Positions 1,018-31,645 are shown, numbered from the stretch's first letter. The stretch: DNA of 32,000 nt from Promethearchaeum syntrophicum (GCF_008000775.2 NZ_CP042905.2:4140001-4172000), one strand, 5' to 3'. Program-made: numbers and translations. Notes: generated by a model from the letters alone, not told the origin.

Positions 1018-1635
1018 TTAAAACTCCAGAAATCCAGTGTCACCCAAAATTTCCTCAATTTTTGCCCGTCTTTTGGGTTTTTCACTAACCTTACTTTCCC
1101 CTTCATCGTATGGATTATCTTCGTTTTCTTCATATATGTTTTCGAGAGTGGCATCTTCAATAAGACCAGAATCTAGTTGTTCTTGGAGTCTTTTTCCATT
1201 TTCAACGTATTTGGCTGCAGTCGCTTTCCACATCTCTGCTTGTTCCAAATCTTTTGGGTCTTTATTTTTTTGATATTCTTCAAGAGCTTTTGTGGAATTA
1301 ACATTTGCATTATCAGCTAAAAATGAATAGACTAAGGTTAATTCAGTAAATTGTTTCTTTTCCCAAAGTTTTTCTTCACGAGATGTGAGTCTAGCATATT
1401 CTTGGTCTTTATAATATATATCAATGAAATCTCCAAATGCATCAACGGGTTCTGTGAGGTCATTCTTGGAAACTTTCTGAGATACACCACAATGTCCGCA
1501 AATTACTTCGACATCTTCTTCTTTTGAAGTTACTTTCGCTTTGACTGTCTTGTGTCCGCATTTTGGGCAGGTAAAGATCTTGGGAAGTGATCTTACTCTT
1601 CTATAAACAATTTTTTTTCTTTTGCGTCGACCCAC
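1018..1635 (-). CDS. elf1: Transcription elongation factor Elf1 homologue (zinc ribbon) with a long acidic C-terminal extension
   Basis: GTG start. The basic N-terminus MGRRKRKK is followed by FTCPKCGH...VICGHCG...LTEPVDAFGDFIDIYY. This matches the Elf1 pattern: basic tail, CxxC-x(n)-CxxC, and the (S/T)EP(I/V)D..(S/G)D(W/F)ID motif. About 125 additional residues are rich in E/D/K. Confidence 0.85.
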   Translation of the reverse strand: MGRRKRKKIVYRRVRSLPKIFTCPKCGHKTVKAKVTSKEEDVEVICGHCGVSQKVSKNDLTEPVDAFGDFIDIYYKDQEYARLTSREEKLWEKKQFTELTLVYSFLADNANVNSTKALEEYQKNKDPKDLEQAEMWKATAAKYVENGKRLQEQLDSGLIEDATLENIYEENEDNPYDEGESKVSEKPKRRAKIEEILGDTGFLEF

Positions 1636-1789
1636 GTTAACTCGTATAAAATAAAGAAACCTAATGCAATAAATTTTATGGTCTTATTTTAGAAAGATTT
1701 TTTGGTCATGCTACATTGAATAAATTAAGTTTTTGCAATACATTTTTCGCAAATGAGTGATATTTCGCCATGAATAATAGGAGATCAAT

Positions 1790-2941
1790 ATGACAGAAGA
1801 CCACACAACCTTAGATTTAGAATATGATAGAATGTTATTAGAAGACGTATTTGATTCCCCAAATCTCAGGTACGTATCGTTGTATATGTATATAATTCGG
1901 AAAGATTTATTCCAAGATTTACTGGATGATGATGTCATTGAACAATTTGAAACTATAACATCACTAGATGAACCAACTGTGGAGGATATAACTAGAATAT
2001 GCACAGGAGATTTTATTAAAGCATTATTTCAATATAAAATGATTACCAATCTTCGATCCTATGAAATCTTTCAATCTAAGGGAAATGATTTTAAAATTCG
2101 GTTTGCTAAAGGATTAAATCTAACCCATGATGAATTATCAGAATCCGAAGAGGAAGTTCATATATTTTTCAACGAAGCATATTTAGAAAGAATTTTAAAT
2201 CCTATCATTCCAGAAATGACACAGACTCGAATACATGAATCACTGGAAAGACTTAGAGCGATGATGTGTCCGAAATCATCTATGATTCATGAACTTGTTC
2301 ATAAATATGGGGATTTTTATGTAATTGATGATGATTTCTACTATATTATTGAGGAATTTGGAAATCCCTATCAAGCTTTAAGGATTGAATTAATGATTCG
2401 TGCAATGTCAAGCAAATACAAAGAAATTGAAAGTAATATAAATGAAGTATTAAAGCAATATGATTCTTCAATAGTTAAAGCACCAATAATGAAGAAATTG
2501 AAGCAGGCTAAAGAGAAAGGGAAAGAGGATTATGTTAAATATTTGATCGATAAATCACGTAAAAAAACTCTCCCCCATAAATTTTGGGTTGAATTTCCAG
2601 ATATTGAAATTCCAGATAATTATGTTAAATGGAAAGATTCTTTAAATCAGCTATTTAACCTTAAACTAAAATTTATAGATATTGATCTTAAAATGGATGA
2701 GTTAAGAGCACATTATTCAGGCAAAAACCAAAAAATGACTTATTTGAAATTCATTCAAAAATCTACATATGATGAAGACAATATATCAGAAAGAATTAAG
2801 ACTTTATTAATCGAAGCGCGAAATTCTTTGAAGGAAGTAAGTGAGAATTTAGAGAAATATCCTAAGAAAGAAATGAAATTACTAAATTTAGATATCGAAC
2901 GAATGATAATTGAAAAAGGATTAGATGAGGAAGAAGACTAG
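1790..2941 (+). CDS. Hypothetical protein, operon gene 1 (383 aa, helical, acidic C-terminus)
   Basis: Long ORF in AT-rich DNA. AGGAG sits 6 nt upstream of the ATG. The stop abuts the next gene's start. No motif recognised. Confidence 0.8.
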   Translation: MTEDHTTLDLEYDRMLLEDVFDSPNLRYVSLYMYIIRKDLFQDLLDDDVIEQFETITSLDEPTVEDITRICTGDFIKALFQYKMITNLRSYEIFQSKGNDFKIRFAKGLNLTHDELSESEEEVHIFFNEAYLERILNPIIPEMTQTRIHESLERLRAMMCPKSSMIHELVHKYGDFYVIDDDFYYIIEEFGNPYQALRIELMIRAMSSKYKEIESNINEVLKQYDSSIVKAPIMKKLKQAKEKGKEDYVKYLIDKSRKKTLPHKFWVEFPDIEIPDNYVKWKDSLNQLFNLKLKFIDIDLKMDELRAHYSGKNQKMTYLKFIQKSTYDEDNISERIKTLLIEARNSLKEVSENLEKYPKKEMKLLNLDIERMIIEKGLDEEED

Positions 2942-3916
2942 GTGAAAAATATGGGTGAAATTTGTCCAGCATGTGGAGAAGCAGAACTAACTGAATTAGT
3001 ACCGGGAGTAAAAAGTTGCCCCGCTTGTCGAAAGGTATTTCGTTCGAAGGTTGAAAAGAAAAAAATTCAAAAATCGGAAGGAAAACTTCTTGATGGGGAG
3101 TATTGGATGAAAAATACTACTCTTAATCCAAAATATGAAATTGCCGATAAAGGAATAACGATTTTTAGGGAGGAAAATAAGTTATGGTTTGCAGTTTTAT
3201 TGTGTCATACCCCTGATTTCCCTGATTCAAAATATATTCGATTATCTTGGTGGAAAAAAAGTGTGAATATCCATGCGGGTATGTTTAAAATTGAAGATTT
3301 GGATGAATTAGAAAATGTTTTAATCGCATTGAATCGTATTGAAGAAGATTTCGATGAATATTTTGAAGTAAAGGATAATAAGAAAATTTCATATGAGCCT
3401 ATTCCAGAAAGAAAGGATATTGATGATGAATCTTATGTTTTTAATCTAACTAAAAGAAAATGCCCAAAATGTGGTTGGAAAATGAAAAAAAGTAAAAATC
3501 ATCGCTATTATGAATGTGAAAAATGCGGAGAAATTATCGTATTAGATGATGGGCATCCGATTTATGATATCCCATCAAAATATTTACCAATGTCATATTC
3601 AACTAATTACCCTATCAATTTCTATTTACCCAATTATGGAATTACAGTTAGTAATAAAATGGGGAATTGGAAAGCGATTATCACAATCCATGCAAAAGAA
3701 AACCCCGACAAAAGATGGTTACGATTTTATTGGTGGAGAAGAAATTTCCAACATTATATGACTAGTCAATACTCACTTGGTTCATCCCAAGGATTAAAAT
3801 GGGAAACGCGAAAAGGAGTTATGTCACCCAACATCTATGATAAGAAGTTGATAGCCCCACTAATTAAAGGATTAGAAGAAATGAAGAAAATTTGGTTAAT
3901 GAGTAAAGAGGAATAG
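2942..3916 (+). CDS. Double zinc-ribbon protein with internal two-fold duplication, operon gene 2
   Basis: GTG at 2942, or ATG 9 nt downstream. Ribbon 1 is CPACGEAELTELVPGVKSCPAC and ribbon 2 is CPKCGWKMKKSKNHRYYECEKCG. Each ribbon is followed by a roughly 110-aa domain carrying a WW(K/R)(K/R) motif: YIRLSWWKK and WLRFYWWRR. Confidence 0.8.
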   Translation: MKNMGEICPACGEAELTELVPGVKSCPACRKVFRSKVEKKKIQKSEGKLLDGEYWMKNTTLNPKYEIADKGITIFREENKLWFAVLLCHTPDFPDSKYIRLSWWKKSVNIHAGMFKIEDLDELENVLIALNRIEEDFDEYFEVKDNKKISYEPIPERKDIDDESYVFNLTKRKCPKCGWKMKKSKNHRYYECEKCGEIIVLDDGHPIYDIPSKYLPMSYSTNYPINFYLPNYGITVSNKMGNWKAIITIHAKENPDKRWLRFYWWRRNFQHYMTSQYSLGSSQGLKWETRKGVMSPNIYDKKLIAPLIKGLEEMKKIWLMSKEE

Positions 3917-3918
3917 AG

Positions 3919-5064
3919 ATGGAAAACGAATTAGAAAGCGATTTATGGTCAGAATTGATAGAAAAATTTGGAAATTCTATAAAAAAATCCTTAGAAGTAA
4001 TCAAGGAAAGAGATATTGAGAATATTCCAGGAGCAAAAGAACAATTAATAAGACGCTTTGAAGAATTAAATCGATATCTTCCACGAAATAATGGAGAAAT
4101 TATGATTAAAAGTATAGATGAATCGATTTCGAACTCATTTTTTCCTCAAACCAACAAATTAGCTGTAGCATTTGAAAAAATTTTAAAAACTCTCGAACAA
4201 CAGCATGAAAATGCATTTATAATTAATGAATTAATTAATGGGTTTGTTGCCAGTCAAAGTAAATCGTTTGGATCCTTTAAAGAAGGGCCTATTATAGATC
4301 GTATTATTGAAGCCTTTAAAAAATCAAAGAATTTTCGTATATCTGATTATTCTTTTTATGCAATGTTTGGAAACCCAAATAAACCCAGAAAAAATCTCCA
4401 AACTAATTTGAAATCAATAGCAGAATTTCTTGGATTAGTAAAAGAAGAAAAAATATATGCACGTGATCTTGCTAGAAGTGAGGAAAAAGCAGTTAATTTC
4501 TATACATTCCCTCCGGAAATCTTAGAATTATTAGAAGGAACCTATATTATTCACACTGAAAAAGGCGAGACAATTATTAATGATGATTTTGATAAGAACG
4601 TCTTTACCAGCTTATTCTTGGCAAGATATTCAGTTGGGAGAAAAAACCTAGATGCCTACAAAATAAATGGAATCTGTGCAATTTTTGCTCTTATTCTCAT
4701 ATTAAGCTTTATGCCTAAAGTTAAATTAGCGGAAAATAACCCTATTTTACGTGATCGTAATTATGATTCCCAAAATATGAGTGTGATTCCGAAATCTTGG
4801 ATGATGAAAGAAGTTTTAGTAGAGTTACTTCCTAGCACTATCGAAATAGTAGCATATAGAATGGGAGCATCTCTATGGTATAATAAAATCGAAAAATCTG
4901 ATGCTCAAAAACGATTGCATCTTCAAACTCGATTTTTAATTAAGGATGTTAATAAATGGGTACTAGGAAACTTGTGTAGAGTAGAAATCCCAATATTTGT
5001 TGAAATAAGTAATATTTTCCAGGAAATTACTGTAGATGGAACAGATACGGATTATAATAATTAA
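3919..5064 (+). CDS. Hypothetical protein, operon gene 3 (381 aa)
   Basis: GAGGA lies upstream of the ATG, with a 2-nt gap from gene 2. One segment, VFTSLFLARYSVGRKNLDAYKINGICAIFALILIL, resembles a segment of gene 4. Confidence 0.8.
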   Translation: MENELESDLWSELIEKFGNSIKKSLEVIKERDIENIPGAKEQLIRRFEELNRYLPRNNGEIMIKSIDESISNSFFPQTNKLAVAFEKILKTLEQQHENAFIINELINGFVASQSKSFGSFKEGPIIDRIIEAFKKSKNFRISDYSFYAMFGNPNKPRKNLQTNLKSIAEFLGLVKEEKIYARDLARSEEKAVNFYTFPPEILELLEGTYIIHTEKGETIINDDFDKNVFTSLFLARYSVGRKNLDAYKINGICAIFALILILSFMPKVKLAENNPILRDRNYDSQNMSVIPKSWMMKEVLVELLPSTIEIVAYRMGASLWYNKIEKSDAQKRLHLQTRFLIKDVNKWVLGNLCRVEIPIFVEISNIFQEITVDGTDTDYNN

Positions 5065-5084
5065 CACATATACGGTGAAAAATC

Positions 5085-6332
5085 ATGGCACGTGAAAGAT
5101 GGGAAGAAATTGTAGCATATTATAAAACTTACATTTCGATACTTCAACCTTTATTGAAAGAAACCAGAAGACTTTTCTTAGATTTGACTTCAGAAGAATT
5201 ACTGGATTTTTCAGCTTTACAAGAAAAATTGGAAGAGGAAACTAAAAGAAAAATCAATACAGTAAAAGCCATTGCAGAATTTAATGCTTTTTTCAGGAAA
5301 GAGATTTTTAAACATATTCTTAACTATATCGGAGAAGTTCAGAAAGATTTTGAAGTCCTTGATATAAAGGATAATATAATAGATTTCCTAGATGAATCTA
5401 TTCATGCATTTGATGGTTTATTAGCCTTAATTCAAGAAGATTTTTCAAAACAAGAAGGATCCCCCTTGAATTTTCTGTTCGACTTGTTAAATGAAATATT
5501 ACTTCCAAATGGAGATAATCTGGAAAGTATTTATGAACAGTTATTAGAAAAATCTGAAGAGTGGTATGAAGCTCAAAGGCATATTCTTAGCCCAACTACA
5601 TTTTATAGGGAAAAAATTGGAGAAATGACAATTCCTGGATTAAGTCCAAAAACATATCAGATTATAAATGGGATTACCTCACTTTTTAACCTCGATCCAA
5701 ATTATTTGGATATGGATGAAAATCCTAATTATGTTGTACCTGCAATTATGGTCTCTGACATTTTTGAACCTTACATAGATAATATTGCAAATGCTGAGGA
5801 AGAGTCAATTAAAAGAATTTGCAGTAGATTGGAATTACGAATCACTGATGGAATTTTTATATCTCCCTCAGAGGAATTATTACAATTAGCAGAACCGCAT
5901 AACTTTTTCAGTAGACAAAATGATTCAGATGGAAAAACTCGTTGGATTCCTCAATTCAGTAATGAAACATTTGTATTATTATACTTAGCAAAGGTATCCA
6001 TGCGAAGAGGGTTCCTTTCAAAAGAACTAATTAATTGGATATCGATGAATTTCTCATTTATTATTTATAACACAGTTTTACACGCAAATCTATCCGATGA
6101 GAATATTTTTTATAATTTATTCTTAGATCTTAAAACTGAAGAAAAAATCATTCCGTATTTAATGAAAATCTTGTGTTTTGAGAATTATCTTAGATTAGAC
6201 AGAACTAAAATACGTGATTCTCCGGTATACAGGAAAGAACTATTCAATTTTCTAGGATCAAAAATTGAAATAATTGATAAAATAACATATCTACTAGTAG
6301 AGAAATATGAAAAATTTATGAATCCTAAATAA
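5085..6332 (+). CDS. Hypothetical protein, operon gene 4 (415 aa), possible distant paralogue of gene 3
   Basis: GGTGA lies upstream of the ATG. The segment TFVLLYLAKVSMRRGFLSKELINWISMNFSFIIYN aligns by eye with the gene 3 segment (shared pattern F..L.LA[RK].S..R..L....IN.I...F..I). Confidence 0.8.
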   Translation: MARERWEEIVAYYKTYISILQPLLKETRRLFLDLTSEELLDFSALQEKLEEETKRKINTVKAIAEFNAFFRKEIFKHILNYIGEVQKDFEVLDIKDNIIDFLDESIHAFDGLLALIQEDFSKQEGSPLNFLFDLLNEILLPNGDNLESIYEQLLEKSEEWYEAQRHILSPTTFYREKIGEMTIPGLSPKTYQIINGITSLFNLDPNYLDMDENPNYVVPAIMVSDIFEPYIDNIANAEEESIKRICSRLELRITDGIFISPSEELLQLAEPHNFFSRQNDSDGKTRWIPQFSNETFVLLYLAKVSMRRGFLSKELINWISMNFSFIIYNTVLHANLSDENIFYNLFLDLKTEEKIIPYLMKILCFENYLRLDRTKIRDSPVYRKELFNFLGSKIEIIDKITYLLVEKYEKFMNPK

Positions 6333-6352
6333 AAAAAAAAAAGTGAAAAATA

Positions 6353-7423
6353 ATGACATTTACAATTGAAGAAATGCAACAGCGTTTCAGAAAATTTGGG
6401 ACAATTTATTCAGGTGATGATATCAGAGAAGATGTTGAAGATATTATCGGATTGGAAGATAAAAAAGAGATGATGGCTGATTTTTTTCTATCATTAAAAA
6501 AATATGGCGACATAGCTTCTAACTTACAAGCTGCAAAAATCGCACCTAATTTTACTATGTTACTATATGGCCCTCCTGGAACAGGCAAAACAGCATTAAC
6601 TAGAGCAATGGCAAAGAAATACGAGATTCCAATGGGACTAGTTGATGCAGATAGGTTAGTATCTCCATTATTGGGAGATACTGTGAAAAATATTCGAGGA
6701 GTATTCGATTTAGCAGCAGAATTTTCAAAGGAAAATGGCGTATTTCTTCTTTTTTTTGATGAAATTGATGCCATAACAGGAGAACGTGCAAATGCACATG
6801 AAGTAGGTGAAATTAAAAGAGCAGTCATATCTTTCTTACAAATAATTGATAAAATTTCTTATGATGCTATCCCTCTAGCAATCTTCGGAGCAACGAATCA
6901 TGAAAAACAATTAGATTCAGCCATATGGAGAAGATTTACGTATCATTTAAAATTTCAATTTCCAAATTTTATTGTTCGTAAAAATATCCTAGAATCTTTC
7001 ATTCTCCGAGTTGAAAAAGCAACAATTGGAATAGATCCACGCTTAACGGAATCAATTGAATCAGAATATAAATTTTTATTCCAGAGATATTCAAAATTGA
7101 AAGAAAAATTAGGAAGAGAATTGAACGACGAAGAATATTATGGAATTTTTGATGAATTGAAACAAAAGGGTAAAGAAGGAATTCTATATCATACTTTAGG
7201 ATATACAGGGGCAGATTTAATGCGGGCAATGAGGGTAGCTTTGTTCAAAGCATTACAAAAGAATATGTTGTTGTATGATGATTATTTTCGATCCTTAGAA
7301 TTAGTCGGAGGAACTGAAACACACGTTTTACAAGGATTACGACTAGCTAAAGAGAATTCAGCAAACCAAGAGGAAAATAAACCTCCTACAAGTGATTTAA
7401 GTGATTTTGATATAGATATTTAA
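6353..7423 (+). CDS. Classic-clade AAA ATPase with a very short N-terminal region and an acidic C-terminal tail, operon gene 5
   Basis: Walker A is GPPGTGKT (about 6569-6592) and Walker B is LLFFDEID (D-E at 6758-6763). Sensor-1/SRH reads GATNHEKQLDSAIWRRF. The lid motif is GYTGADLMRAMRVAL. No MIT, CDC48-N or other N-domain is seen. Confidence 0.9.
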   Translation: MTFTIEEMQQRFRKFGTIYSGDDIREDVEDIIGLEDKKEMMADFFLSLKKYGDIASNLQAAKIAPNFTMLLYGPPGTGKTALTRAMAKKYEIPMGLVDADRLVSPLLGDTVKNIRGVFDLAAEFSKENGVFLLFFDEIDAITGERANAHEVGEIKRAVISFLQIIDKISYDAIPLAIFGATNHEKQLDSAIWRRFTYHLKFQFPNFIVRKNILESFILRVEKATIGIDPRLTESIESEYKFLFQRYSKLKEKLGRELNDEEYYGIFDELKQKGKEGILYHTLGYTGADLMRAMRVALFKALQKNMLLYDDYFRSLELVGGTETHVLQGLRLAKENSANQEENKPPTSDLSDFDIDI

Positions 7424-7566
7424 ACGAATCGAGGGGAATTATAATTTTAGAAAGAAATTACACTGATATTAAAATAATAAATCGGGATTCTGTTCAATTT
7501 TTTTCGGAAATCATCGATTCCATTAAAGAAAATCAGAGTAATTTAGATGAACCTGCAGATTCTTAT

Positions 7567-8265
7567 ATGGAATTACTTTCTGAACAGATTAATAATAATA
7601 TCTCCGATATGGCAATAATTTTTAAGAAAATTCAGAAATTTCTAACTGAAGATTATCAAAACGAACTGTTTTTTGACATGCAAAATCTTTCAAAATATTC
7701 AATTGTAAAAGAAATAGGTATTAATCTTCTTAAAAATCGAATTCTCGAAAAACCAATAGAAAGCGATAATATTGTATTTGCAATATATAAAAAATATTGG
7801 GACGCATTGCTACAAAGAATGATTAAATCTTCTAAATTCAATTCTACAATAGAAAAACTAAAAAATTTTCATTATGAGGCTATTAATGATAAAATTAATG
7901 AAGAACTAAAGAAAATCCCAATAGAGATAGATCCAAGTGTAAGGGATGACTACAAAAAAGCATATTATAGTAATCCTTTAACTTTTAGTGAATATCTAAA
8001 TTTTGAACAGAAAAAGCATAAAGAAAGCCAATATTCTCAAGAACAACCAGATTCTTTTAATTCCTCAGAGAAATTACGGAAAGAATTTGTGATGGCCGTT
8101 GAAAAAAAAAAAATTGACAAGAAAAAGGAAGAACAGGAAAAGCAATTTGATAATTATAATGCGTATTTCAACATGGATGATCGCCAATTACAACGCGCTA
8201 AAAGAAATGGAAAAATGAGAAGAAAATATACTAAAAAAACGCGAAAGGAGAAATACAAAAAATGA
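7567..8265 (+). CDS. Hypothetical helical protein with a strongly basic K/R-rich C-terminal tail, operon gene 6. The N-terminus may extend upstream to about 7438.
   Basis: The C-terminus is RAKRNGKMRRKYTKKTRKEKYKK. The stop overlaps the next start (ATGA at 8262-8265). The reading frame is open upstream to 7411, with GAGGGG (7431-7436) preceding ATT/ATA codons. Confidence 0.75.
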   Translation: MELLSEQINNNISDMAIIFKKIQKFLTEDYQNELFFDMQNLSKYSIVKEIGINLLKNRILEKPIESDNIVFAIYKKYWDALLQRMIKSSKFNSTIEKLKNFHYEAINDKINEELKKIPIEIDPSVRDDYKKAYYSNPLTFSEYLNFEQKKHKESQYSQEQPDSFNSSEKLRKEFVMAVEKKKIDKKKEEQEKQFDNYNAYFNMDDRQLQRAKRNGKMRRKYTKKTRKEKYKK

Positions 8266-9893
8266 TTAAACTTAATATTGATTCACATGAAATTCCTATT
8301 AATCAAAAACTGATGTTTCTCCAAGGAAATTATGATATTAATACAATTGAGAATCTTCCTTATTCTTGGATTGACTGGAATGAAAATCTAGAGATTTTAT
8401 TTAGAGACTCAGATTTGTTGATTGAATTTTTTTCACGTTTAAATTCCATTATCACTCATCAAAATTCAAAAAAAATAGGTTTAATATCTGATATCTGGAG
8501 AAATCTATATTCTACATTAAAAGAAAATAAAAATAATATTGCAAAATATGAAAAATTCAATGAGCTCAGTAAAAATTTGCGAAGTAAATCAAATTTGCTT
8601 CAAGATATTGAACGTTTAGAGTTAATGGAAAAAAATCTTGACCAAATGGTAAATCAAAGCATCTTTCAAAGTAAAAAAGATTTATTGCTTAAATTAGAAA
8701 AATTACTCGTAACACAAACTACAGAATTTAATATTCAATCTGATGAATTTTTTGTTAATAAACAAAGAGTTGATGAAAATCTTGCAATAATAACAAAATT
8801 TGACAACAATTTATCACGATTAAAGCAAGAACAAAGAATATTATTTAAGGAAACAAACGAACTCACAAAACAAATGGATTCTTTGGAGCCTTTAATGAAT
8901 GTTTATCAAGAAAAGCTTGAAGTGATTGATTCCTATAAAAATGGTAAAGATTATAATAGAATTAAAAAGAAATTCGAAGATATTGTAAAGGAACATGAAG
9001 ATTGCAAAAACGATAGAGTCCTCAAAATTAAAAAAAGCAAAGATATTACTCAAAAAATGCGGAATTTGCGAGTTCAGATTAAAAAAAATAACAATGATTT
9101 AAGAAAATTAGATTTGTCAAAGTTTAATGAAATTAAAAAAAACTATGAAGATTTAAAAACCGATCTCGAAAATACAAAAACTCAGATTACCTCAGTTCGA
9201 TTAGAAATTGATTCAATGTTAAATAACAGTGAAAAAAATGTCTCTCAAAATGATTTAAATCAAGATGATATGTTTTATTCAAACCCCACCGAAATTAAAG
9301 AACAATTGAAAAAGAAACGAAATCTAATCAGCCAAATCAATGATTTCTTTGAGAATACATATGATACCACCGATTTAGAGATAATTAAAAAGAAAATTGA
9401 TGCTGATAGAAGAAATTTATTGGATGAACTTACTTCCAATTCAGAAAAGCTTCAACTTTCATCTGAGAAATCTCACTATTATGAAGATTTATTAAAGAGA
9501 ATTAAAGAAATTCAATCATGGATGAATAAATTTTTGAGCAAAATTGATATGAAAATATCATTCTCTCTAGCATTTGATAAAGAAAACCTGAAATTAACAA
9601 ATAAAATTATGAAAAAAAATCAATATATCAACTTTAACACGGATTTAAAAAGAATTGAAAAAGCGTTTTTTTATTTTAGTGCGATAATTAGCAGTTACTT
9701 AGGAGAAAACTATAGGTTTATTCCCATAAGGATTAATAAATTGCCAAAATTTATGATAACGAAACAAAATTTCATAAAAAATATCAAAATGCTTGATGAT
9801 ATGTGTGAGGAATTACCTGAAGATATTAATATTATATTTTTTTTAGAAGAAAACAAGTTCGAAATTCCGTTAGAAATTATTAAAATTGACTAA
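8262..9893 (+). CDS. Long coiled-coil protein with SMC/Rad50/RecF-like end regions lacking a P-loop and Walker B (candidate degenerate SMC-like protein), operon gene 7
   Basis: AGGAG lies upstream. The N-terminus MIKLNIDSHEIPINQKLMFLQGNYDINTIENLPYS follows the SMC-head beta-strand pattern but has no GxxGxGKS. The central roughly 350 aa are K/E/L/N-rich heptad-like sequence. The C-terminus LKRIEKAFFYFSAIISSYLGENYRFIPIRINKL...INIIFFLEE mimics the signature/Walker-B/D-loop layout without the catalytic residues. Confidence 0.8.
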   Translation: MIKLNIDSHEIPINQKLMFLQGNYDINTIENLPYSWIDWNENLEILFRDSDLLIEFFSRLNSIITHQNSKKIGLISDIWRNLYSTLKENKNNIAKYEKFNELSKNLRSKSNLLQDIERLELMEKNLDQMVNQSIFQSKKDLLLKLEKLLVTQTTEFNIQSDEFFVNKQRVDENLAIITKFDNNLSRLKQEQRILFKETNELTKQMDSLEPLMNVYQEKLEVIDSYKNGKDYNRIKKKFEDIVKEHEDCKNDRVLKIKKSKDITQKMRNLRVQIKKNNNDLRKLDLSKFNEIKKNYEDLKTDLENTKTQITSVRLEIDSMLNNSEKNVSQNDLNQDDMFYSNPTEIKEQLKKKRNLISQINDFFENTYDTTDLEIIKKKIDADRRNLLDELTSNSEKLQLSSEKSHYYEDLLKRIKEIQSWMNKFLSKIDMKISFSLAFDKENLKLTNKIMKKNQYINFNTDLKRIEKAFFYFSAIISSYLGENYRFIPIRINKLPKFMITKQNFIKNIKMLDDMCEELPEDINIIFFLEENKFEIPLEIIKID

Positions 9894-9908
9894 AGAAGGT
9901 GGAAAACT

Positions 9909-10649
9909 TTGGCGAATGAAGTACTTTTACAGCAAATAAGTAGATTAATAATCCAGAATAAGAAAAAAATAGTTAACGAAAGAGATATAATAAATTTGTG
10001 TTCAAATGATGAAGAATATAAAGAAATACTCCCCATTTTAGTTCAGAATTTCAAACTTATAGGATTTTCCTTAATTCGAACAACTTTTCAAGGAAAGAGA
10101 TATTTCGTTTTAACAACTCCGGGAAAAGACGATATTATTTCTCCAAGTATGTACGGGACATTAGGATTGATTATTGCATTACATAATGAAGTCGGAAGAG
10201 AAATCGAATTAATTAAAATTAAACAGATTTTTAAAGAATTATGGGATGAAATTGAAGAATTAATCACGCATAACTACCTTCAAATTTCGAAAAATAAAGG
10301 ATCAGAGACACTAACTATAACTCCAATAGGAAAAGCGGCTTTTAAAAATATTTTGAAGGAGTTAAATCTTCCAAAAATTCTGACCTTCCAAGGTCTTGAT
10401 GAAACAATAATATCAACAGATGAACCATTAACAGAAACCGAAAAGAAAATAACAACCAAAAAGAAAACTACAAAGAAAAAGACTACAAAAAAGAAGACCA
10501 CTAAAAAAAAAACTACTAAGAAAAAGACTACTAAGAAGAAAACTACTAAGAAAAAGACTACTAAGAAGAAAACTACAAAGAAAAAGACCACTAAAAAGAA
10601 AACTACTAAGAAAAAGACTACTAAAAAGAAAACAACTAAGAAAAAATAA
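9909..10649 (+). CDS. Tandem winged-helix (kite/ScpB/MAGE-like pattern) protein with a C-terminal 13 x TTKKK tail, operon gene 8
   Basis: TTG start with GGTGG 7 nt upstream. Segments EYKEILPILVQNFKLIGFSLIRTTFQGKRYFVLT and YGTLGLIIALHNEVGREIELIKIKQIF...LITHNYLQISKNKGSETLTITPIGKAAF fit a two-WH pattern by eye. The tail is described below. Confidence 0.8.
   Translation: MANEVLLQQISRLIIQNKKKIVNERDIINLCSNDEEYKEILPILVQNFKLIGFSLIRTTFQGKRYFVLTTPGKDDIISPSMYGTLGLIIALHNEVGREIELIKIKQIFKELWDEIEELITHNYLQISKNKGSETLTITPIGKAAFKNILKELNLPKILTFQGLDETIISTDEPLTETEKKITTKKKTTKKKTTKKKTTKKKTTKKKTTKKKTTKKKTTKKKTTKKKTTKKKTTKKKTTKKKTTKKK
10452..10646 (+). repeat. In-frame 15-bp tandem repeat (13 units) encoding (TTKKK)13
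   Basis: Codon-by-codon reading gives 13 Thr-Thr-Lys-Lys-Lys units. Synonymous variation is present (aca/act/acc; aaa/aag). A 30-bp higher-order unit, actactaagaaaaagactactaagaagaaa, recurs. Confidence 0.95.
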
Positions 10650-12422: not shown

Positions 12423-14438
12423 ATGAAAGAAAAATCCAAAATCCATGGTAAAAAATTAAATCCAGCAGAAATAAATGATTTGATTTTGGATTATGAAATT
12501 CTTCCTAAAACACATTCACCAATGTATTTGATGCATAAGTATTGGGCTAGAAAACCCGCAAATATCGTTGCTAATTACATTAAACGCTATTGTCCGCAAG
12601 AAGGTATTGTTTTAGACCCCTTCATGGGATCGGGAGTAACAATTTTAGAATCAATTTTTAGTAATCGTTTAGCCATTGGTATTGACGTGAATCCTATGGC
12701 AAATTTTATAACAAAAAATACTGGAATTTACGCCGATATATATAAACTAGAAACCGCATTTCAAATAATTAAAAATGAAGTTGAAAAAAAAAATTCTATA
12801 TTCTCACTTCTCTATGAAATTCAATGTGATTCGTGTAAAAACAGTAAAGCGATAATTACTCACATAATATGGTTAAAAAAGAAAGAAGATTTGAATCATC
12901 AAATAGAAGAGATCAGATATAAGTGTTCAAATTGCGGAGAAATAGTTATAAATAATTCAGATCTTAATTCTAGTTTTATTTCAATGAAAGAATTTATTTT
13001 GAATCAGGAGATAAATGCTTTAACATTTCTTTCTAAAGACGAAATAAAAAATCCGAATGTTTCATTCAAATATACAAATAATCAAGCGTTTATACAATTG
13101 CGACATAATTTACGAAAACAACCAGAACTAACCGAACTATTTACACAACGGAATTATGCTTTTTTGGTTTTTTTAATTCATATAATTAATAAATTATCAG
13201 ATAACTACGAAAATGAGAAAGAACTCTTAAAATTCTGCTTTACTAGCTCATTAGCACAAGCAAGTAAAATGGTTTGGGTCATCAATAAACGTAAGGGAAA
13301 AGCATTAAAAAAAAAACAAGTAGGTTCTTGGACCCACCACTTTTTTTGGGATCCATCAAATTTTTTCGAGGTTAATGCATGGAATTGCTTTAAACATAGA
13401 TATTCTAAATTAAAAAATGGAAAAATCGATTCTAATAAAAGAAATAAGAATTCAAATTCAACTTTTAAATTGGCAGATTCTTTTAGTGATCTTTCAATTA
13501 AAAAGCCTGTTCTCCTATGGAATACATCTTCAACGAAATTGGAACTACCAAATAATACTGTAGATTTTGTTTTTACTGATCCTCCTTACGGAGATTCTAT
13601 CCAATATGGTGAACTTTCAACTTTATGGAATGCCTGGTTAGATGTCGATATGGATCGATATAAAAAAAAAATGGAATTGAATGAAATTATAATCAATACA
13701 CATCAAGGAAAAAATTTGAAATCATACGAATTTAACCTAAAAAAAGTATTCAGCGAAATTTTTAGAGTTTTAAAGCCAGATAAATATATGGTTTTGACTT
13801 TTCATAATACATCTTTCAAAATTCGTAATGCACTGATAAATTCAGTAGTATCTTGTGGTTTTGAATTATGTCAAATATTATTTCAGTTACCTCCACGAGT
13901 TTCTATTAAATCTATGCTACATCATGAAGGTTCTCCTATAGGAGATTATTATATTAGATTCCAAAAACCTCTTCAAAGCCTAGATGATAAGAAAAAAACC
14001 AAATTAAAAACCTTAGACAATGAAGAGATCTATAAGATAATTAAAGATAAAATTAGCGAAATCCTAAAAAAACGGGGAGAACCAACTAATTTCATGTGGA
14101 TTTCAAACTTTCTAGATGAAATGCTATATAAATCTCATATATTTCCAATAGATAATCTTGAATTCTATATTACAAGACTTAAAAACTCCAATTTTTTTCA
14201 TATTAGTAAAGAAGGAAAATGGTGGTTTACACATGATTCAATACCAAAAGATTGTGAAAAACCTTTAACTGCGCAAATTGAAGATTTCTTAGAAATTTAT
14301 CTTAAGGATCACTGGTTAGATGTTAAATTATCTGATAGGACAAAAAAGCAAAAAATATTTAATGAAATTTATCGAAAATTTCGCGGTGTATATAGTCCAG
14401 ATAAATTTGAAACTAATCAAATAATCGAAAAATCTTAA
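12423..14438 (+). CDS. DNA (N6-adenine/N4-cytosine type) methyltransferase with motif I before motif IV and an inserted Zn-ribbon (COG1743/DUF1156-like architecture)
   Basis: The N-terminus has HKYWARKP, then DPFMGSGVT (motif I, about 12615-12641). A Zn-ribbon CDSC...CSNCGE follows, then TDPPYG (motif IV, about 13575-13592). Confidence 0.85.
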   Translation: MKEKSKIHGKKLNPAEINDLILDYEILPKTHSPMYLMHKYWARKPANIVANYIKRYCPQEGIVLDPFMGSGVTILESIFSNRLAIGIDVNPMANFITKNTGIYADIYKLETAFQIIKNEVEKKNSIFSLLYEIQCDSCKNSKAIITHIIWLKKKEDLNHQIEEIRYKCSNCGEIVINNSDLNSSFISMKEFILNQEINALTFLSKDEIKNPNVSFKYTNNQAFIQLRHNLRKQPELTELFTQRNYAFLVFLIHIINKLSDNYENEKELLKFCFTSSLAQASKMVWVINKRKGKALKKKQVGSWTHHFFWDPSNFFEVNAWNCFKHRYSKLKNGKIDSNKRNKNSNSTFKLADSFSDLSIKKPVLLWNTSSTKLELPNNTVDFVFTDPPYGDSIQYGELSTLWNAWLDVDMDRYKKKMELNEIIINTHQGKNLKSYEFNLKKVFSEIFRVLKPDKYMVLTFHNTSFKIRNALINSVVSCGFELCQILFQLPPRVSIKSMLHHEGSPIGDYYIRFQKPLQSLDDKKKTKLKTLDNEEIYKIIKDKISEILKKRGEPTNFMWISNFLDEMLYKSHIFPIDNLEFYITRLKNSNFFHISKEGKWWFTHDSIPKDCEKPLTAQIEDFLEIYLKDHWLDVKLSDRTKKQKIFNEIYRKFRGVYSPDKFETNQIIEKS

Positions 14439-14509
14439 AAGATTTAATTTTTAATATAGTAGAAATTATATTTTTTACCTTCCCTATTAATATAGGAGAA
14501 AAATTAAAT

Positions 14510-15532
14510 TTGGCGAATTGTAGTTTTCCAGAATGCGATGAGGTCTTAAATTACTTACCTTTTCGATGCAGATACTGTGGTGGAACTTACTGTAAAAAAC
14601 ACAGACTACCAGAAAATCATAAATGTTCCTTTGAGCTTCAAATACAACCTAAGAAAGAGGTTTCCCAAGAATTAAAACATTTAAAAGAAGAAGAGAAAAA
14701 ATCTAAAAATAATCAAATTCCTGAAGATAAATCCTATGAACAAATCGATAAGGAAATGCGTAATTATATTCGAGAACAAGAAAGAGCTGCAATGCCCCCA
14801 CCTCCAAGTCGTACGAGAGGAACTTTTGGTAGTCGTTCAAGAGGATATTCTCCTTTTATTTCGAGATCCAGTAAGCCAATAGGGACTTACTCCTTAATGG
14901 GATTATCAACTTTATTTTTTATTCTCTCACAAATTCAAGTGATTCCAGAATATATTTTACTTAATTTAAATACTCTTAGATTTGAATTCTTAACCCACTT
15001 TCCTTCTTTTTTCACAGCAATATTAACTCCTAATGGTTTGATTTCATGGATATTTACATTACTCATTCTATTTTGGTCTGGTAAAGTAATTGAAATGCAG
15101 ATGGGAACTAAATTCTTATTAACATTATATTTACTATCTGGTATTGCAAACGGTTTTGCGATTATTTTACTCCAATCGATAGGTCTTTTTATTAATATTC
15201 CGTTTTTTACTGCTATGACATATAATTTAAATTTATATTCTACTCAAAATGGCGCGTATTATGGATTAATGGTATTTATTCTTTATCGAATCGGGTTAGA
15301 TCGTGAAATGCGATTTTATCTATATTTTATTCCTGTTAGAATGAAAGCTAAATACATTCTCTATTTCATGATTGGAATCCAATTAATATATGGAGGTTTT
15401 GGAATAGTGAGAATTTTACTTGAATTGGAGGGTGCATATTATATTTTATCTTCTTTACCCCAACTTGGAGGAATTTTAGTCGGAGCTTACTTCTGGAAGA
15501 AATTTGGACGTCAAATAGTGAATTTTGTGTAA
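14510..15532 (+). CDS. AN1-type zinc-finger protein fused to a rhomboid-like multi-pass membrane domain that appears to lack the catalytic Ser/His
   Basis: TTG start with GGAG upstream. The AN1 pattern is CSFPEC...FRCRYCGGTYCKKHRLPENHKC. The rhomboid-like layout is WSGKVIEMQMGTKFLLTLYLLSGIANG...TQNGAYYGL...PQLGGILVG. Confidence 0.75.
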   Translation: MANCSFPECDEVLNYLPFRCRYCGGTYCKKHRLPENHKCSFELQIQPKKEVSQELKHLKEEEKKSKNNQIPEDKSYEQIDKEMRNYIREQERAAMPPPPSRTRGTFGSRSRGYSPFISRSSKPIGTYSLMGLSTLFFILSQIQVIPEYILLNLNTLRFEFLTHFPSFFTAILTPNGLISWIFTLLILFWSGKVIEMQMGTKFLLTLYLLSGIANGFAIILLQSIGLFINIPFFTAMTYNLNLYSTQNGAYYGLMVFILYRIGLDREMRFYLYFIPVRMKAKYILYFMIGIQLIYGGFGIVRILLELEGAYYILSSLPQLGGILVGAYFWKKFGRQIVNFV

Positions 15533-15574
15533 ATGTTTTTTTTCTTGCAATAACTTTTTTACGATTAATTTGTA

Positions 15575-16924
15575 ATGGATGATATAATGAGCATTGAATT
15601 TGAGGTTTTTATCGAGATTCCAAAAATCGCCGGGAAAATTGAAATTCCTAATAATCAAGAATTGATACATATTGGAAAACGCGAAATTAAAAATAGTGTT
15701 GTAAAAAATTTATCAGATCCAAGAGCTTTCGATTCAATTTCTAGCGTAAGAACTGATAAAGATACAGGAGCAGTAATTAAACAACAATTTATAATATCCA
15801 GAGTAAAAGATAAATATTTCATTGAAGATCAGAATAGCGCTAATGGCACGTATTTAGGAGGGATTAATCTTAAACAAAGCCCCCCAGCACCCTTGAAAAG
15901 CGGAGATGAAATTATAATTCCTATTGAAGAAAATGGTGAATTAATTCAGCTAAAAATGTATTTTCATATTGAAAAAAAAAAATCTGCTCCAGGAGCTCAA
16001 TCACAGCAGAAACAAATCCATTATCCAACACTGGATTTAGATGAAGCAGAATATTCTGATCCTACAATAACCCCTACAATCCCATCTTCGGCAAATCAAG
16101 CAGTAAAGGCAGGTTCATATCAATATAAATCCTTTATTTATGATCCCAACGATCCGATAAACACTTCCAATAGTTTTATTATGATACAGAGAACTCAAGC
16201 CATTCCACCCAATGCTTTCCAACCCAATTCTGGTTTAGACCTTTCAATGGTATATAAATTAGAAAAAAGTGAATTTTGGCATATCTTAGTTGCAGTGGGA
16301 TTGCTTTTTCTAATGATTTATAGGTATTATATAAATATTAATTTAATATTTTTAATTATCGGCTTGATAACTGATTCTCCGGGTCCTTCTTTAAATGATT
16401 TCTTTATTCAACCCTTACCTATTGCTCTTATTTTCGGTATTTCATTTATAACTCATGAATTATCTCACTTACAAACAGGAAAACATTTCAATTTTCAAAG
16501 TAGGTTTTGTCTAACTAAAGTTGGTGTAAAAGCCACTTTAAAATGGGCATTAATTGGATTTCCTTTTGGTCTCCCGGGTGCTGCGGTTTCAGTTGGTGTC
16601 GATCCAGTTAAAGATGAGGATAAGATGGGTTGGATAAAAATCGCGGGTCCATTTTCAAATTTTGTTTTAGGAGTAATTTTTATAATTCTTGCATTTTTCA
16701 TTCCAAGTGGCTCAATTATTGATTTAAAAGCCATTTTCGTACAAGCTAGTTCCTTAAATTTTGTTTTAGGAGCGTTTAATATGATTCCGCGAGAAGTGAA
16801 AGGATTTGCATTGGACGGGAAATTTATCATTAAATGGAATAAACCATGGTATTTTACGCTACTAGCAGGTTTAATATTGGGTTTTGCAACCGCAATTTTT
16901 TACTCCAATTCAGTTAATACTTAA
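15575..16924 (+). CDS. FHA domain fused to an M50 (site-2 protease) family intramembrane metalloprotease
   Basis: The FHA pattern is IHIGKREI...FIISRVKDKYFIEDQNSANGTYLGGINL...LKSGDEIIIP. HELSH lies at 16454-16468 in a TM helix. The downstream NMIPREVKGFALDG matches the M50 N..P....LDG motif. Confidence 0.8.
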   Translation: MDDIMSIEFEVFIEIPKIAGKIEIPNNQELIHIGKREIKNSVVKNLSDPRAFDSISSVRTDKDTGAVIKQQFIISRVKDKYFIEDQNSANGTYLGGINLKQSPPAPLKSGDEIIIPIEENGELIQLKMYFHIEKKKSAPGAQSQQKQIHYPTLDLDEAEYSDPTITPTIPSSANQAVKAGSYQYKSFIYDPNDPINTSNSFIMIQRTQAIPPNAFQPNSGLDLSMVYKLEKSEFWHILVAVGLLFLMIYRYYININLIFLIIGLITDSPGPSLNDFFIQPLPIALIFGISFITHELSHLQTGKHFNFQSRFCLTKVGVKATLKWALIGFPFGLPGAAVSVGVDPVKDEDKMGWIKIAGPFSNFVLGVIFIILAFFIPSGSIIDLKAIFVQASSLNFVLGAFNMIPREVKGFALDGKFIIKWNKPWYFTLLAGLILGFATAIFYSNSVNT

Positions 16925-28699: not shown

Positions 28700-28798
28700 C
28701 GGGCCATGAGGGATTCGGACCCCCGACTTGCGGGTTTCTTCAAACATTTTTCAATATTTGTAAAAGCCCGACACGCTACCTGGCTGCGTCAATGGCCC
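28700..28798 (-). tRNA. Intron-containing tRNA, anticodon read as UUU (Lys), with a 25-nt intron at the canonical 37/38 position
   Basis: The reverse complement is GGGCCAT-TG-ACGC-AGCCAGGTA-GCGT-G-TCGGG-CTTTTA[caaatattgaaaaatgtttgaagaa]A-CCCGC-AAGTC-GGGGG-TCCGAAT-CCCTC-ATGGCCC-G. The acceptor stem is a perfect 7 bp, the D stem 4 bp and the T stem 5 bp (one G-U). The 27:43 pair is a mismatch, and the T-loop has C at position 55. Confidence 0.75.
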
Positions 28799-29697: not shown

Positions 29698-29717
29698 TCA
29701 TTTTTGATCTATTCTCA

Positions 29718-30326: not shown

Positions 30327-30328
30327 CT

Positions 30329-30943: not shown

Positions 30944-30975
30944 GTAATCAGCTCGTTTGATTTTTATCTATATTT

Positions 30976-31581: not shown

Positions 31582-31645
31582 CCTAATAAAAAATAATTAA
31601 GATGTTGGAATATATAAATCATAATAGTACTTGTTCCATATTGAT

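Follow-up and report, generated by a model that had tools for sequence, protein, structure and literature searches.

An eight-gene operon of Promethearchaeum syntrophicum may encode a DNA- or chromatin-associated multi-subunit complex that derives from an SMC5/6-related SMC-kleisin-kite machine and is served by an AAA+ remodeller, a reading to which we give about an even chance. The genes (g1 to g8) are co-directional on the + strand in the ORF listing and fill positions 1790-10649 of the window, the whole stretch of 32,000 nucleotides analysed here (Table 1). Rare sister operons with a live SMC, referred to below as form A, keep an SMC6-like ATPase, so the window's type of operon (form B) looks like a remodelled SMC5/6-type complex. 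All operon members are annotated as "hypothetical" in the databases, and no description of this operon was found in the literature searched.

Operon structure and conservation

Table 1. Features of the operon and its upstream border, in window coordinates
Feature	Position	Strand	Description
Elf1-like gene	1018-1635	-	divergent from g1 (Pfam Zn_ribbon_Elf1 7e-18)
Intergenic, Elf1-like gene to g1	1636-1789	.	presumed operon promoter region
g1	1790-2941	+	383 aa, helical, no known family
g2	2942-3916	+	324 aa, twofold Zn-ribbon and ~100-aa domain repeat
g3	3919-5064	+	381 aa, helical bundle and winged-helix
g4	5085-6332	+	415 aa, helical, possible distant g3 paralogue
g5	6353-7423	+	356 aa, classic-clade AAA+ ATPase
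g6 N-terminal extension, probable	7438-7566	+	in frame, without stop, downstream of GAGGGG
g6	7567-8265	+	232 aa from ATG, helical, K/R-rich C-terminal tail
g7	8262-9893	+	543 aa, SMC/Rad50-shaped
g8	9909-10649	+	246 aa, kite-like tandem winged-helix
Tandem repeat, 15 nt	10443-10646	+	encodes (TTKKK) tail of g8, 13.6 copies

The first-pass annotation had described eight co-directional ORFs with short junctions and SD-like motifs, and the ORF listing and upstream sequence agree with it throughout. From g1 to g8 the junctions measure 0, 2, 20, 20, 143, -4 and 15 nt, and SD-like motifs lie 5-12 nt 5' of g1 (GGAG), g2 (GAGGA), g3 (GAGGA), g4 (GGTGA), g5 (GTGA), g7 (GGAG) and g8 (GGTGG). Conservation of the eight-gene order across genomes supports the further claim that these genes probably form one operon. 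It is very improbable that g1-g5 and g6-g8 are two unrelated adjoining transcription units, as the 143-nt gap between g5 and the g6 ATG, which lacks an SD (position 7567), might suggest, given that the gap, after an SD-like motif, contains coding sequence that extends g6 in frame and is conserved, and that no complete locus examined has one half without the other, whether of form A, form B or a rearranged variant. The extended start of g6 is reasonable because GAGGGG stands at 7431-7436, the frame is open upstream of the ATG, and the peptide encoded there, INRDSVQFFSEIID, is conserved in a congener (G003), whose start codon for it, TTG, corresponds to ATA in the window. The spacing of about 14 nt proposed earlier for an extended gene 6 is therefore sensible but needs a non-canonical ATT/ATA start. 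Orthologues of g6 in other genera are 260-355 aa long and include this N-terminal part.

All eight genes, their order and their flanks (Elf1-like, galK, Lsm and methylase genes) are kept in Ca. Lokiarchaeum ossiferum and in second-family genomes. The Elf1-like gene is a conserved divergent neighbour in both families, and family f1 has a gene for a 671-aa DNA methylase 1.8 kb 3' of the operon. Among genomes of the two families, which belong to one Asgard order, g3 is present in 12 of 13 and 119 of 135, with three weak matches in some 250 genomes from the rest of the phylum. Calling the genes "orphan" was thus too strong: they are narrow families that almost all genomes of the two families carry, and sister operons exist. 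The concern that orthologues might not be syntenic in related genomes is answered by an order conserved across Asgard (Lokiarchaeia-type) genomes, and searches assigned none of the proteins to an already characterised housekeeping family.

Each of the eight genes is single-copy in the window's genome, and dN/dS is 0.05-0.13 for g2-g6 and g8 and 0.31 for g7, compared with 0.10 for galK. Single copy and purifying selection argue against a mobile element. The suggestion that the window's form is the core module of an integrated element was rejected, given the same flanks in distant genera, single copy and galK-like dN/dS. As far as the sequences go, the locus is most likely a single operon passed on by vertical descent and confined to two families within one Asgard order (Promethearchaeota / Lokiarchaeia-type).

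The eight gene products

The only intact enzyme of the set is g5, correctly recognised at the outset as a classic AAA ATPase, in which every catalytic motif is intact. It shows the hallmarks of a classic AAA+ protein (Walker A and B, sensor 1, arginine fingers in the second region of homology), with the motifs GPPGTGKT, LLFFDEID, GATNH and LDSAIWRRF invariant in 17 homologues, and matches Pfam AAA (PF00004) at 2e-25 (90 bits against a cut-off of 21). Its architecture comprises a single AAA domain and lid, the core resembling IetA and the second region of homology resembling Vps4/CdvC; Pfam finds no MIT or other known N-domain, and the pore loop, SPLLGD, is without an aromatic residue. The PADLOC match to IetA (1.7e-55) covers residues 37-222, the ATPase core only, and in NCBIfam the core alone aligns with IteA (3e-51, 174.6 bits against an equivalog cut-off of 510), followed by CdvC as second-best (1.6e-25). 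The best PDB matches are p97/VAT/NSF (3e-32).

The first-pass annotation's view of g7 as SMC-shaped and P-loop-less is borne out by the predicted structure and by Foldseek. The AF2 model (pLDDT 85) assembles an SMC/Rad50-type head from residues 1-75 and 428-543, joined by an antiparallel coiled-coil arm of about 150 residues whose tip is a plain helical turn (residues 221-228) with no globular hinge and no CxxC. All 50 PDB matches listed by Foldseek (best E 9.5e-9 among them) are Rad50, MukB, JetC, Smc5/6, LmuB or Smc/cohesin/condensin, except one integrative model. VIA Z is 13.6-13.7 to Rad50 and to the Smc5/6 head over residues 1-543, values that purely helical proteins reach similarly. Walker A (GxxGxGKS/T), Walker B (hhhhDE) and signature (LSGGQ/E) motifs are absent from g7 and all 12 of its orthologues, the equivalent places in g7 reading GNYDINTI, IPIRIN and LKRIEK. 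No match was obtained in Pfam, NCBIfam or PADLOC, and an SMC_N scan of the genome was silent at the locus. On its predicted structure, g7 is a protein of SMC/Rad50 architecture with a short arm that has lost its ATPase motifs.

Tandem winged-helix domains make up residues 1-165 of g8, followed by the genus-specific (TTKKK)n tail. The protein has no Pfam match; its features gave leads to MAGE and DUF4194/MksE. The Atlas model, of moderate confidence (pTM 0.53, pLDDT 0.63), matches two ScpB clusters (TM 0.51 and 0.54) and Nse1 (TM 0.54) over 131-138 residues, supporting the earlier label "kite-like" at the level of predicted fold. Genome scans for ScpB, MAGE and Nse1 gave no match at g8, the MAGE scan saying little because its control matched nowhere. 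The tail, first described as (TTKKK)13, is real: its repeat has a period of 15, it is confined to the window's genus, and it is shorter or absent in orthologues. Contigs of a public sequencing run break at this repeat.

The remaining five products belong to no known family. No Pfam, NCBIfam or PADLOC family was found for g1 or g4. Homologues of g1 are 26-64% identical and its orthologues hold the same operon position, and g4 follows g3 in all loci examined. The twofold duplication of a Zn-ribbon seen earlier in g2 is borne out: a conserved domain (YIRLSWWKK / WLRFYWWRR) comes after each of its two CPxC...CxxC ribbons, and C26, C29, C174, C177, C192 and C195 are invariant in the alignment. Pfam returns only generic Zn-ribbon matches below cut-off for this protein and PADLOC only weak Zn-ribbon matches to Cas12f; its 339 homologues, from Promethearchaeota-type records, are labelled hypothetical, unnamed or generic Zn-ribbon, none with a specific function. 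The most conserved non-ATPase subunit is g3, a family of only 40 clusters among 1.84 billion representatives. Its AF2 model (pLDDT 84, pTM 0.83) is a helical bundle with a winged-helix at about residues 108-240; no whole-chain structural match was found, and the best matches are winged-helix domains of TFIIE/TFE, Cdt1 and ORC (Z 4.5-5.6). That g3 and g4 are distant paralogues, as had been proposed, is weakly supported by hhalign (E 0.0025, probability 12%) and by single ORFs in two divergent loci (L057 and L156) that match both HMMs. By comparison, g6 evolves fast (17-38% identity between genera); none of its 13 members has a Pfam match, an Atlas structure search returned nothing, and family-model and profile comparisons found no kleisin signature.

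Sister operons and a proposed function

The form A gene order, seen in six loci, is g1'-(g2')-g3'-g4'-AAA'-SMC', after which come genes for proteins of ~300 aa (multi-winged-helix), ~285 aa and ~165 aa, the last homologous to g8. As homologues, g1-g5 and g8 are common to both forms, and a full-length SMC6-like ATPase stands where form B has g7. The g1 HMM matches the first gene of form A cassettes (E 4e-12 and 3e-11), g2 is the component best conserved between the forms (56-59% identity), and the last gene of the form A cassette encodes a g8 homologue (E 7e-8) that hhalign aligns with g8 over the full length. SMC' is 1000-1200 aa long with GxNGxGKS and IDEF intact and Walker A, Walker B and signature motifs all present; its profile matches SMC6 at 1.2e-55, SMC5 at 1e-29 and archaeal Smc at 2.6e-27, and it also matches the LmuB (3e-17), mad3 and JetC models. 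A protein after SMC' matches Nse4_C below cut-off (E 1.3e-3). A profile of its family found nothing in the PDB, an Nse4_C scan of the window's genome gave no match anywhere, and profile comparison detected no relation of g6 to the kleisin-like or multi-winged-helix proteins of form A.

Form A is sporadic and adjoins NYN and JAB genes. It occupies the form B locus in one genome (G013) and replaces form B in another of the window's own genus (G001); none of the genomes searched has both forms. A further genome (G006) encodes a 678-aa dead SMC intermediate. Elsewhere in the window's genome lie two intact Smc genes of the condensin type, each near an ScpB gene, and no intact SMC5/6-type gene was found in it.

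Compared by hhalign, g7 and SMC' reach a probability of 96.8%, a value inflated by the coiled coil, since reversed controls score 73-91%; pieces confined to the heads align in register, at E 0.01-0.05. The proposed SMC5/6 kinship of g7 itself draws on operon position and predicted fold. The first-pass annotation had the AAA motor replace, or act on, a dead SMC-like scaffold. Since the AAA protein and g1-g4 already accompany a live SMC in form A, the comparison does not bear out replacement, and action on or with the complex is more likely.

In the SMC5/6-derived complex that we favour, g7 would descend from, or have taken the place of, SMC'. Dimers of g7 with g8, and probably g6, may form a DNA-binding clamp or bridge that no longer opens or translocates through an ATP cycle of its own, leaving a g5 hexamer as the sole NTPase. 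The winged-helix and Zn-ribbon proteins g1-g4 would recruit this hexamer, which might thread a subunit tail and thereby load, unload or disassemble the scaffold, by analogy with Vps4 on ESCRT-III or NSF on SNAREs. The function would be housekeeping-like, in chromosome maintenance or DNA surveillance, as opposed to that of a mobile defence island. A more specific proposal, which we regard as tentative and rather doubtful, is that, in Asgard archaea of the Lokiarchaeia type, an SMC5/6-related complex has become an ATP-independent SMC scaffold that a classic AAA+ unfoldase of its own and four lineage-specific adaptors load and remove in trans. If true, this would add a new principle to the ways in which SMC complexes operate, and the g1-g4/AAA module would be an archaeal regulator set of a kind built independently by eukaryotes (Nse5/6-type loaders, Cdc48/p97-type extraction).

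A lineage-fixed SMC-type defence against plasmids or viruses, like Wadjet, Lamassu or eukaryotic SMC5/6 episome restriction, is conceivable, if unlikely; on that reading, foreign DNA would be sensed by the SMC-like/kite module, and the IetA-like AAA and g1-g4 would carry out the response. Short-armed SMC-like proteins are typical of defence systems, and JetC and LmuB are among the structural neighbours of g7, as their models and mad3 are among the matches of SMC'. The best family of g5 in both PADLOC and NCBIfam is IetA of IetAS, the methylase gene lies downstream in family f1, and form A, sporadic and next to NYN and JAB genes, stands in for form B in G013 and G001, much as cassettes swap at defence loci. 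However, form B as found in the window occurs almost universally, in a single copy and in synteny with housekeeping genes, and is as slow to evolve as galK, and the IetS protease partner is missing from the operon. Family models and the predicted fold of g3, a helical bundle with a winged-helix and not a nuclease, revealed no effector domain such as a nuclease or protease, and the seven proteins other than g5 have no significant PADLOC match, the nearest being the weak Cas12f Zn-ribbon for g2 and a chance-level JetD for g3.

The Vps4-like features of g5, namely its LDSAIWRRF motif and CdvC match, would also suit a scaffold with no connection to DNA, for protein remodelling or of a cytoskeletal/membrane kind, in which a Vps4-like AAA disassembles a lattice of coiled-coil g7 and the winged-helix domains are protein-protein modules, as in ESCRT-II, where tandem winged-helix folds also occur. 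We consider both the scaffold and this role for its winged-helix domains improbable: form A has an SMC6-like ATPase together with a kite homologue and a protein weakly resembling Nse4_C, and we know of no SMC-kleisin-kite type complex that does not act on DNA. Structurally, g8 lies near the SMC kites ScpB and Nse1 and not near Vps25, g5 is without an MIT domain, and nucleic acid would be a fitting partner for the Zn-ribbons of g2 and the basic tails that g6 and g8 carry.

Comparison with known systems

The operon shares superfamily architecture with canonical archaeal Smc-ScpAB, and the predicted g8 fold resembles ScpB, but the genome already carries the two intact Smc genes near ScpB elsewhere, and g7 and g8 are undetected by the SMC_N and ScpB Pfam models. 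Like Wadjet (JetABCD) and MksBEF(G), it combines an SMC-like protein and a kite in one operon, JetC being among the best structural matches of g7 and DUF4194/MksE a lead for g8. Unlike Wadjet, it has no recognisable JetD/Toprim nuclease (the sole JetD match, g3, is at chance level, E 0.0065), its SMC-like protein is not an active ATPase as JetC is, it includes an AAA+ partner, and it is fixed and syntenic where Wadjet is patchy and mobile. Lamassu (LmuA-LmuB-LmuC) offers the short-armed LmuB (~600 aa), found among the Foldseek matches of g7 and by SMC', but LmuB retains its ATPase motifs, no LmuA-type effector is recognisable here, the distribution differs, and the operon adds an AAA+ ATPase and four extra subunits.

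The g5 core matches the IetA models best, whereas IetAS pairs its AAA ATPase with the protease IetS; the operon has no subtilase/protease partner, its gene context is entirely different, and the IteA score is far below cut-off. In Vps4/CdvC-ESCRT-III and NSF-SNAREs, helical or coiled-coil assemblies are taken apart by an AAA+ hexamer of the classic clade, and g5 has a Vps4-like second region of homology. With no MIT domain, no ESCRT-III-like substrate and a non-aromatic pore loop, the likeness would be one of mechanism by analogy and not of membership.

"SMC5/6-related" archaeal SMC operons have been described (PMC8665677; bioRxiv 10.1101/2024.01.07.573240). Neither source mentions the partnership with an AAA+ ATPase and g1-g4, and "AAA", "Walker" and "inactive" have 0 occurrences in the latter. 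SMC5/6 itself (Smc5-Smc6, the Nse4 kleisin and the Nse1/Nse3 kites) differs from the window's operon in that g7 has half the length of an SMC and is without hinge, Walker A, Walker B and signature motif, and in that no kleisin is recognisable. The likeness lies in the profile of SMC', far closer to SMC6 than to other SMCs, in the weakly Nse4_C-like and winged-helix (kite-like) proteins after it, in the predicted fold of g8, which resembles Nse1 and ScpB, and in the head-arm architecture of g7, with Smc6 chains among the Foldseek matches listed. What sets both forms apart from SMC5/6 is that an AAA+ ATPase and g1-g4, of unknown families, are obligatory operon partners.

Operon architecture and conservation

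The eight plus-strand ORFs of the operon (g1 to g8) recognized in the first-pass annotation are confirmed by the ORF listing, with junctions of 0, 2, 20, 20, 143, -4 and 15 nt, and SD-like motifs were likewise found before seven of the eight starts, the exception being the annotated ATG of g6 at 7567. The open frame of g6 runs upstream of this ATG to the end of g5, with GAGGGG at 7431-7436. The upstream peptide (INRDSVQFFSEIID...) is conserved in a congener, which starts with TTG where the window has ATA, and g6 orthologues from other genera include this N-terminal part. These features suggest that g6 is probably longer than annotated, with a start at a non-canonical ATT or ATA; otherwise, ∼40 N-terminal residues have been lost in this species. 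The window belongs to a complete 4.32-Mb genome (G000:C1:4140001-4172000), and the operon block has a G+C content of 25-33% and a positive GC skew. The sole "RNA" run containing the locus comprises 9-41 kb contigs whose depth is flat over genes and spacers, resembling genomic contigs, and provided no evidence of transcription or of a single transcript for the operon. A bacterial promoter and terminator scan was set aside as uninformative, the host being an archaeon.

Searches with the eight proteins (tblastn) recovered the complete gene set, in unchanged order, from Candidatus Lokiarchaeum ossiferum B35, two congeners and three further genera, with galK, Lsm and the DNA-methylase gene likewise kept downstream. 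A chance adjacency of two unrelated operons is unlikely. In the second family of the order, g1 to g5 and g8 were recovered in the same order by BLAST, with a ∼500-aa ORF in the g7 slot, the Elf1-like gene divergent upstream and Lsm downstream. This Elf1-like gene is a conserved divergent neighbor in the two families, and locus L050 has another, more distant copy on the downstream side. A g3 probe was positive in 6/7 genomes sampled from one family and 64/68 from the other, with one weak match among ∼225 other genomes of the phylum, and a broader g3 profile in 12/13 and 119/135 genomes, with three weak matches elsewhere, some of the match-less genomes being incomplete assemblies. The g3 family is very narrow (40 clusters among 1.84 billion representatives), and the 339 proteins matched by g2 are all in Asgard-type records, labelled hypothetical, unnamed or generic Zn-ribbon.

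Each of g1 to g8 is single-copy in the genome, and dN/dS relative to a congener (G002) is 0.05-0.10 for g2 to g5, 0.13 for g6, 0.31 for g7 and 0.10 for g8, compared with 0.10 for the adjoining galK. In its distribution, synteny, single copy number and dN/dS values, the operon behaves like a vertically inherited core function and unlike a mobile island. The earlier alternative that it forms the core module of an integrated element was ruled out by the conserved flanks, with no integrase or repeats seen.

The remainder of the window (see table) includes two adjacent, unusual membrane-protease fusions and a Kre9/KNH-like gene, a family known mainly from fungi, beside a gene for a solute-binding protein. 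A tRNA detected by Rfam and not by ARAGORN fits an intron-containing archaeal tRNA gene. An array of tandem paralogues extends past the window end, and the four complete ones scanned had no Pfam match.

Coordinates of features in the window, in the same genome and in relatives
Feature	Location	Strand	Description
Elf1-like gene	1018-1635	-	205 aa; N-terminal Elf1 zinc-ribbon (7e-18), long C-terminal extension
Operon g1 to g8	1790-10649	+	
DNA-methylase gene	12423-14438	+	671 aa; split matches (N6_N4_Mtase, UPF0020); no visible restriction partner; conserved downstream of Lsm in one of the two families (f1)
Membrane-protease fusions	14510-16924	+	340 aa, AN1 zinc finger and weakly rhomboid-like domain; 449 aa, FHA domain and M50 site-2 protease
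Solute-binding protein	17209-19470	+	753 aa; bacterial TSP3 repeat
Kre9/KNH-like protein	19919-21703	-	594 aa; four Kre9/KNH-like Ig domains
tRNA	28700-28798	-	99 nt; Rfam 46.8 bits
Tandem paralogues	29059-31999	-	at least five genes; 45-75% identity; ∼200-aa products, C-terminal halves hydrophobic
Smc locus L157	G000:C1:289000-299500		condensin-type
Smc locus L158	G000:C1:3317000-3329000		condensin-type
Form-A locus L048	G013:C1:1133000-1152000		
Form-A locus L154	G001:C66		short contig, flanks not covered
Locus L155	G006:C24:2000-21999		ORF 13080-15116 in the g7 slot

Predicted properties of the operon proteins

Across the eight proteins, the AAA domain and generic Zn-ribbons were the only matches from Pfam, NCBIfam and PADLOC scans, and no protein was assigned to a characterized housekeeping family. 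The g5 product is a classic AAA+ ATPase, in agreement with the first-pass annotation, matching Pfam AAA at 2e-25 and p97, VAT and NSF in the PDB at 3e-32, with Walker A, Walker B, sensor 1 and the arginines invariant across 17 homologues. IetA, from the IetAS defence system, is the closest match to its core (1.7e-55), with a score far under the NCBI equivalog cut-off, and CdvC/Vps4 ranks second; the second region of homology (LDSAIWRRF) resembles that of Vps4, and the pore loop (SPLLGD) is without an aromatic residue.

The description of g7 as a P-loop-less SMC-shaped protein is supported by a model folded with 12 orthologues (pLDDT 85), in which strands of both termini make a head and an antiparallel coiled coil of ∼150 residues per strand has a plain turn (residues 221-228) as its tip. 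With the exception of one integrative model, the 50 Foldseek matches listed from the PDB are Rad50, MukB, JetC, Smc5/6, LmuB and Smc/cohesin/condensin (best E 9.5e-9), and ATPase motifs are absent from g7 and every orthologue examined. A second-look aligner gave Z 13.6-13.7 to Rad50 and the Smc5/6 head over residues 1-543, scores that purely helical proteins also approach. Profile searches of the PDB with g7 and g8 returned only coiled-coil noise (haemagglutinin HA2 and similar).

The kite-like nature of g8 is borne out by its ESM Atlas model, whose neighbors are two ScpB clusters (TM 0.51, 0.54) and eukaryotic Nse1 (TM 0.54), and its feature neighbors include MAGE and DUF4194/MksE, all of them kite families. 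Alignment of g8 with single ScpB sequences of the genome (hhalign) gave no result in an insensitive query setup. The reported (TTKKK) tail corresponds to a 15-nt tandem repeat of 13.6 copies and is limited to the window's genus.

Among the remaining proteins, g2 is a twofold repeat, each unit comprising a Zn-ribbon and a conserved domain, and g3 is modelled as a helical bundle into which a winged helix (WH) is inserted (pLDDT 84, pTM 0.83); it lacks a whole-chain structural match, the best matches being WH domains of TFIIE/TFE, Cdt1 and ORC (Z ∼5). Leads to a nuclease in g3, namely FokI and AlwI (Atlas features 0.75-0.78) and Tsp45I (Pfam E 0.007, G013 homologue), were rejected because the model is a helical bundle with a WH and gave no restriction-enzyme match. 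The distant paralogy of g3 and g4 noted earlier is weakly suggested. No family was detectable for g1, g4 or g6, and when members of the g1 and g6 alignments were scanned one by one against Pfam, nothing consistent emerged. Complex prediction for g6-g7-g8 scored 0.59, compared with 0.54 when an unrelated protein took the place of g7.

Sister operons with an intact SMC

The complete genome G013, from the same family, is without g7 and has an inverted cassette (form A) at the operon's chromosomal place, between a g2 gene and a g8 remnant adjoining galK. The cassette encodes, in order, a g1 homologue (HMM E 4e-12), g3' (25% identity), g4' (23%), AAA' (35%, also IetA-like), a 1057-aa SMC-like protein (SMC') matching the P-loop families AAA_21, AAA_23 and SMC_N, a 322-aa protein, a 313-aa protein with a weak Nse4_C match and a 176-aa protein aligning over its full length with g8. 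G001, a genome of the same genus as the window, shares this architecture, as do four contigs of metagenomic or MAG origin, in one of which the last small gene matches g8 at 7e-8. The form-A ∼300-aa protein has several weak WH matches, MksE among them, and no relation was found between g6 and the two middle form-A proteins. In the SMC' proteins, the GxNGxGKS, H-S-x-G-Q and IDEF motifs are all intact, and their profile matches SMC6 (1.2e-55) ahead of SMC5 (1e-29), SMC4 (4e-28) and archaeal Smc (2.6e-27).

G001 and G013 have form A only, and the other genomes searched only the dead form. The g2 proteins of G001 and G013 share 56-59% identity with that of the window, versus 85% for congener G002, a divergence suggesting that the whole cassette was probably exchanged, and it looks as if form A replaced the dead form, or the reverse, by recombination in these two genomes.

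Alignment of the g7 and SMC' families (hhalign) gave a probability of 96.8% (E 2e-10), with reversed-sequence controls reaching 73-91%, and head-only pieces aligned in the expected register at E 0.01-0.05; given these values, the match was discounted as proof of homology. Instead of sequence, the case for g7 as the degenerate counterpart of SMC' draws on the fold of g7, on its place within a homologous operon and on the G006 protein. In G006, a genus of the same family, the g7 slot holds a 678-aa motif-less protein, which may represent a stage between the live SMC-like form and the short dead one. The G006 locus also has an extra 432-aa ORF and the gene order g2-x-g1.

Elsewhere, two condensin-type Smc genes (1493 and 1197 aa) are intact in the window's genome, both with a ScpB-type kite gene close by, and there is a Rad50-like gene; an intact SMC5/6-type gene was not found in it, and MAGE, Nse1 and Nse4_C scans of the genome had no matches. 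Based on the two complete Smc genes with their ScpB-type neighbors, Lokiarchaeia-type genomes may hold two canonical SMC complexes and a degenerate third.

A proposed lineage-fixed SMC5/6-related complex or a possible defence system

In the best-supported reading, the operon derives from an SMC5/6-related complex and is fixed in its lineage; the SMC subunit (g7) would have lost its ATPase and half of its arm, and the kite (g8) and the basic-tailed helical subunit (g6) would have been retained. The ancestral live form would already have included the AAA+ ATPase together with four accessory proteins of WH or Zn-ribbon type. The proposal that an AAA motor replaces a dead SMC does not hold as a simple replacement, because the AAA accompanies live SMC' as well. 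A more probable role for the AAA+ ATPase is in loading, unloading or disassembling the complex, or in acting on the substrate of the complex. We infer the mechanism as well as DNA binding and assembly.

The main rival is a role in defence similar to that of Wadjet, Lamassu or SMC5/6 restriction. Points for it are the IetA-like AAA, the structural neighbors JetC and LmuB, the swapping of cassettes and the nearby methylase gene. Against it, the operon is near-universal and syntenic in its lineage, evolves slowly and is without any effector domain detected. A DNA-independent scaffold is an unlikely reading.

An ATP-driven cycle is the defining trait of SMC complexes. A dead, shortened SMC under purifying selection across an order is thus unexpected for the field, and more unexpected is that it is always accompanied by an intact AAA+ motor and five proteins of unknown families. 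These five families, all currently annotated as hypothetical, are candidate SMC regulators. SMC5/6 is thought to derive from an archaeal SMC5/6-related complex, and with regard to eukaryogenesis the cultured, best-studied Asgard lineage (Lokiarchaeum and the genus that includes a MAG named Promethearchaeum) appears to retain only a degenerate version. Rare relatives retain a live version with the same accessory genes, providing a natural live/dead pair for experiments. SMC5/6-related archaeal SMC-kleisin-kite operons have already been described (PMC8665677; bioRxiv 10.1101/2024.01.07.573240), and these publications make no mention of an AAA partner or of an inactive form.
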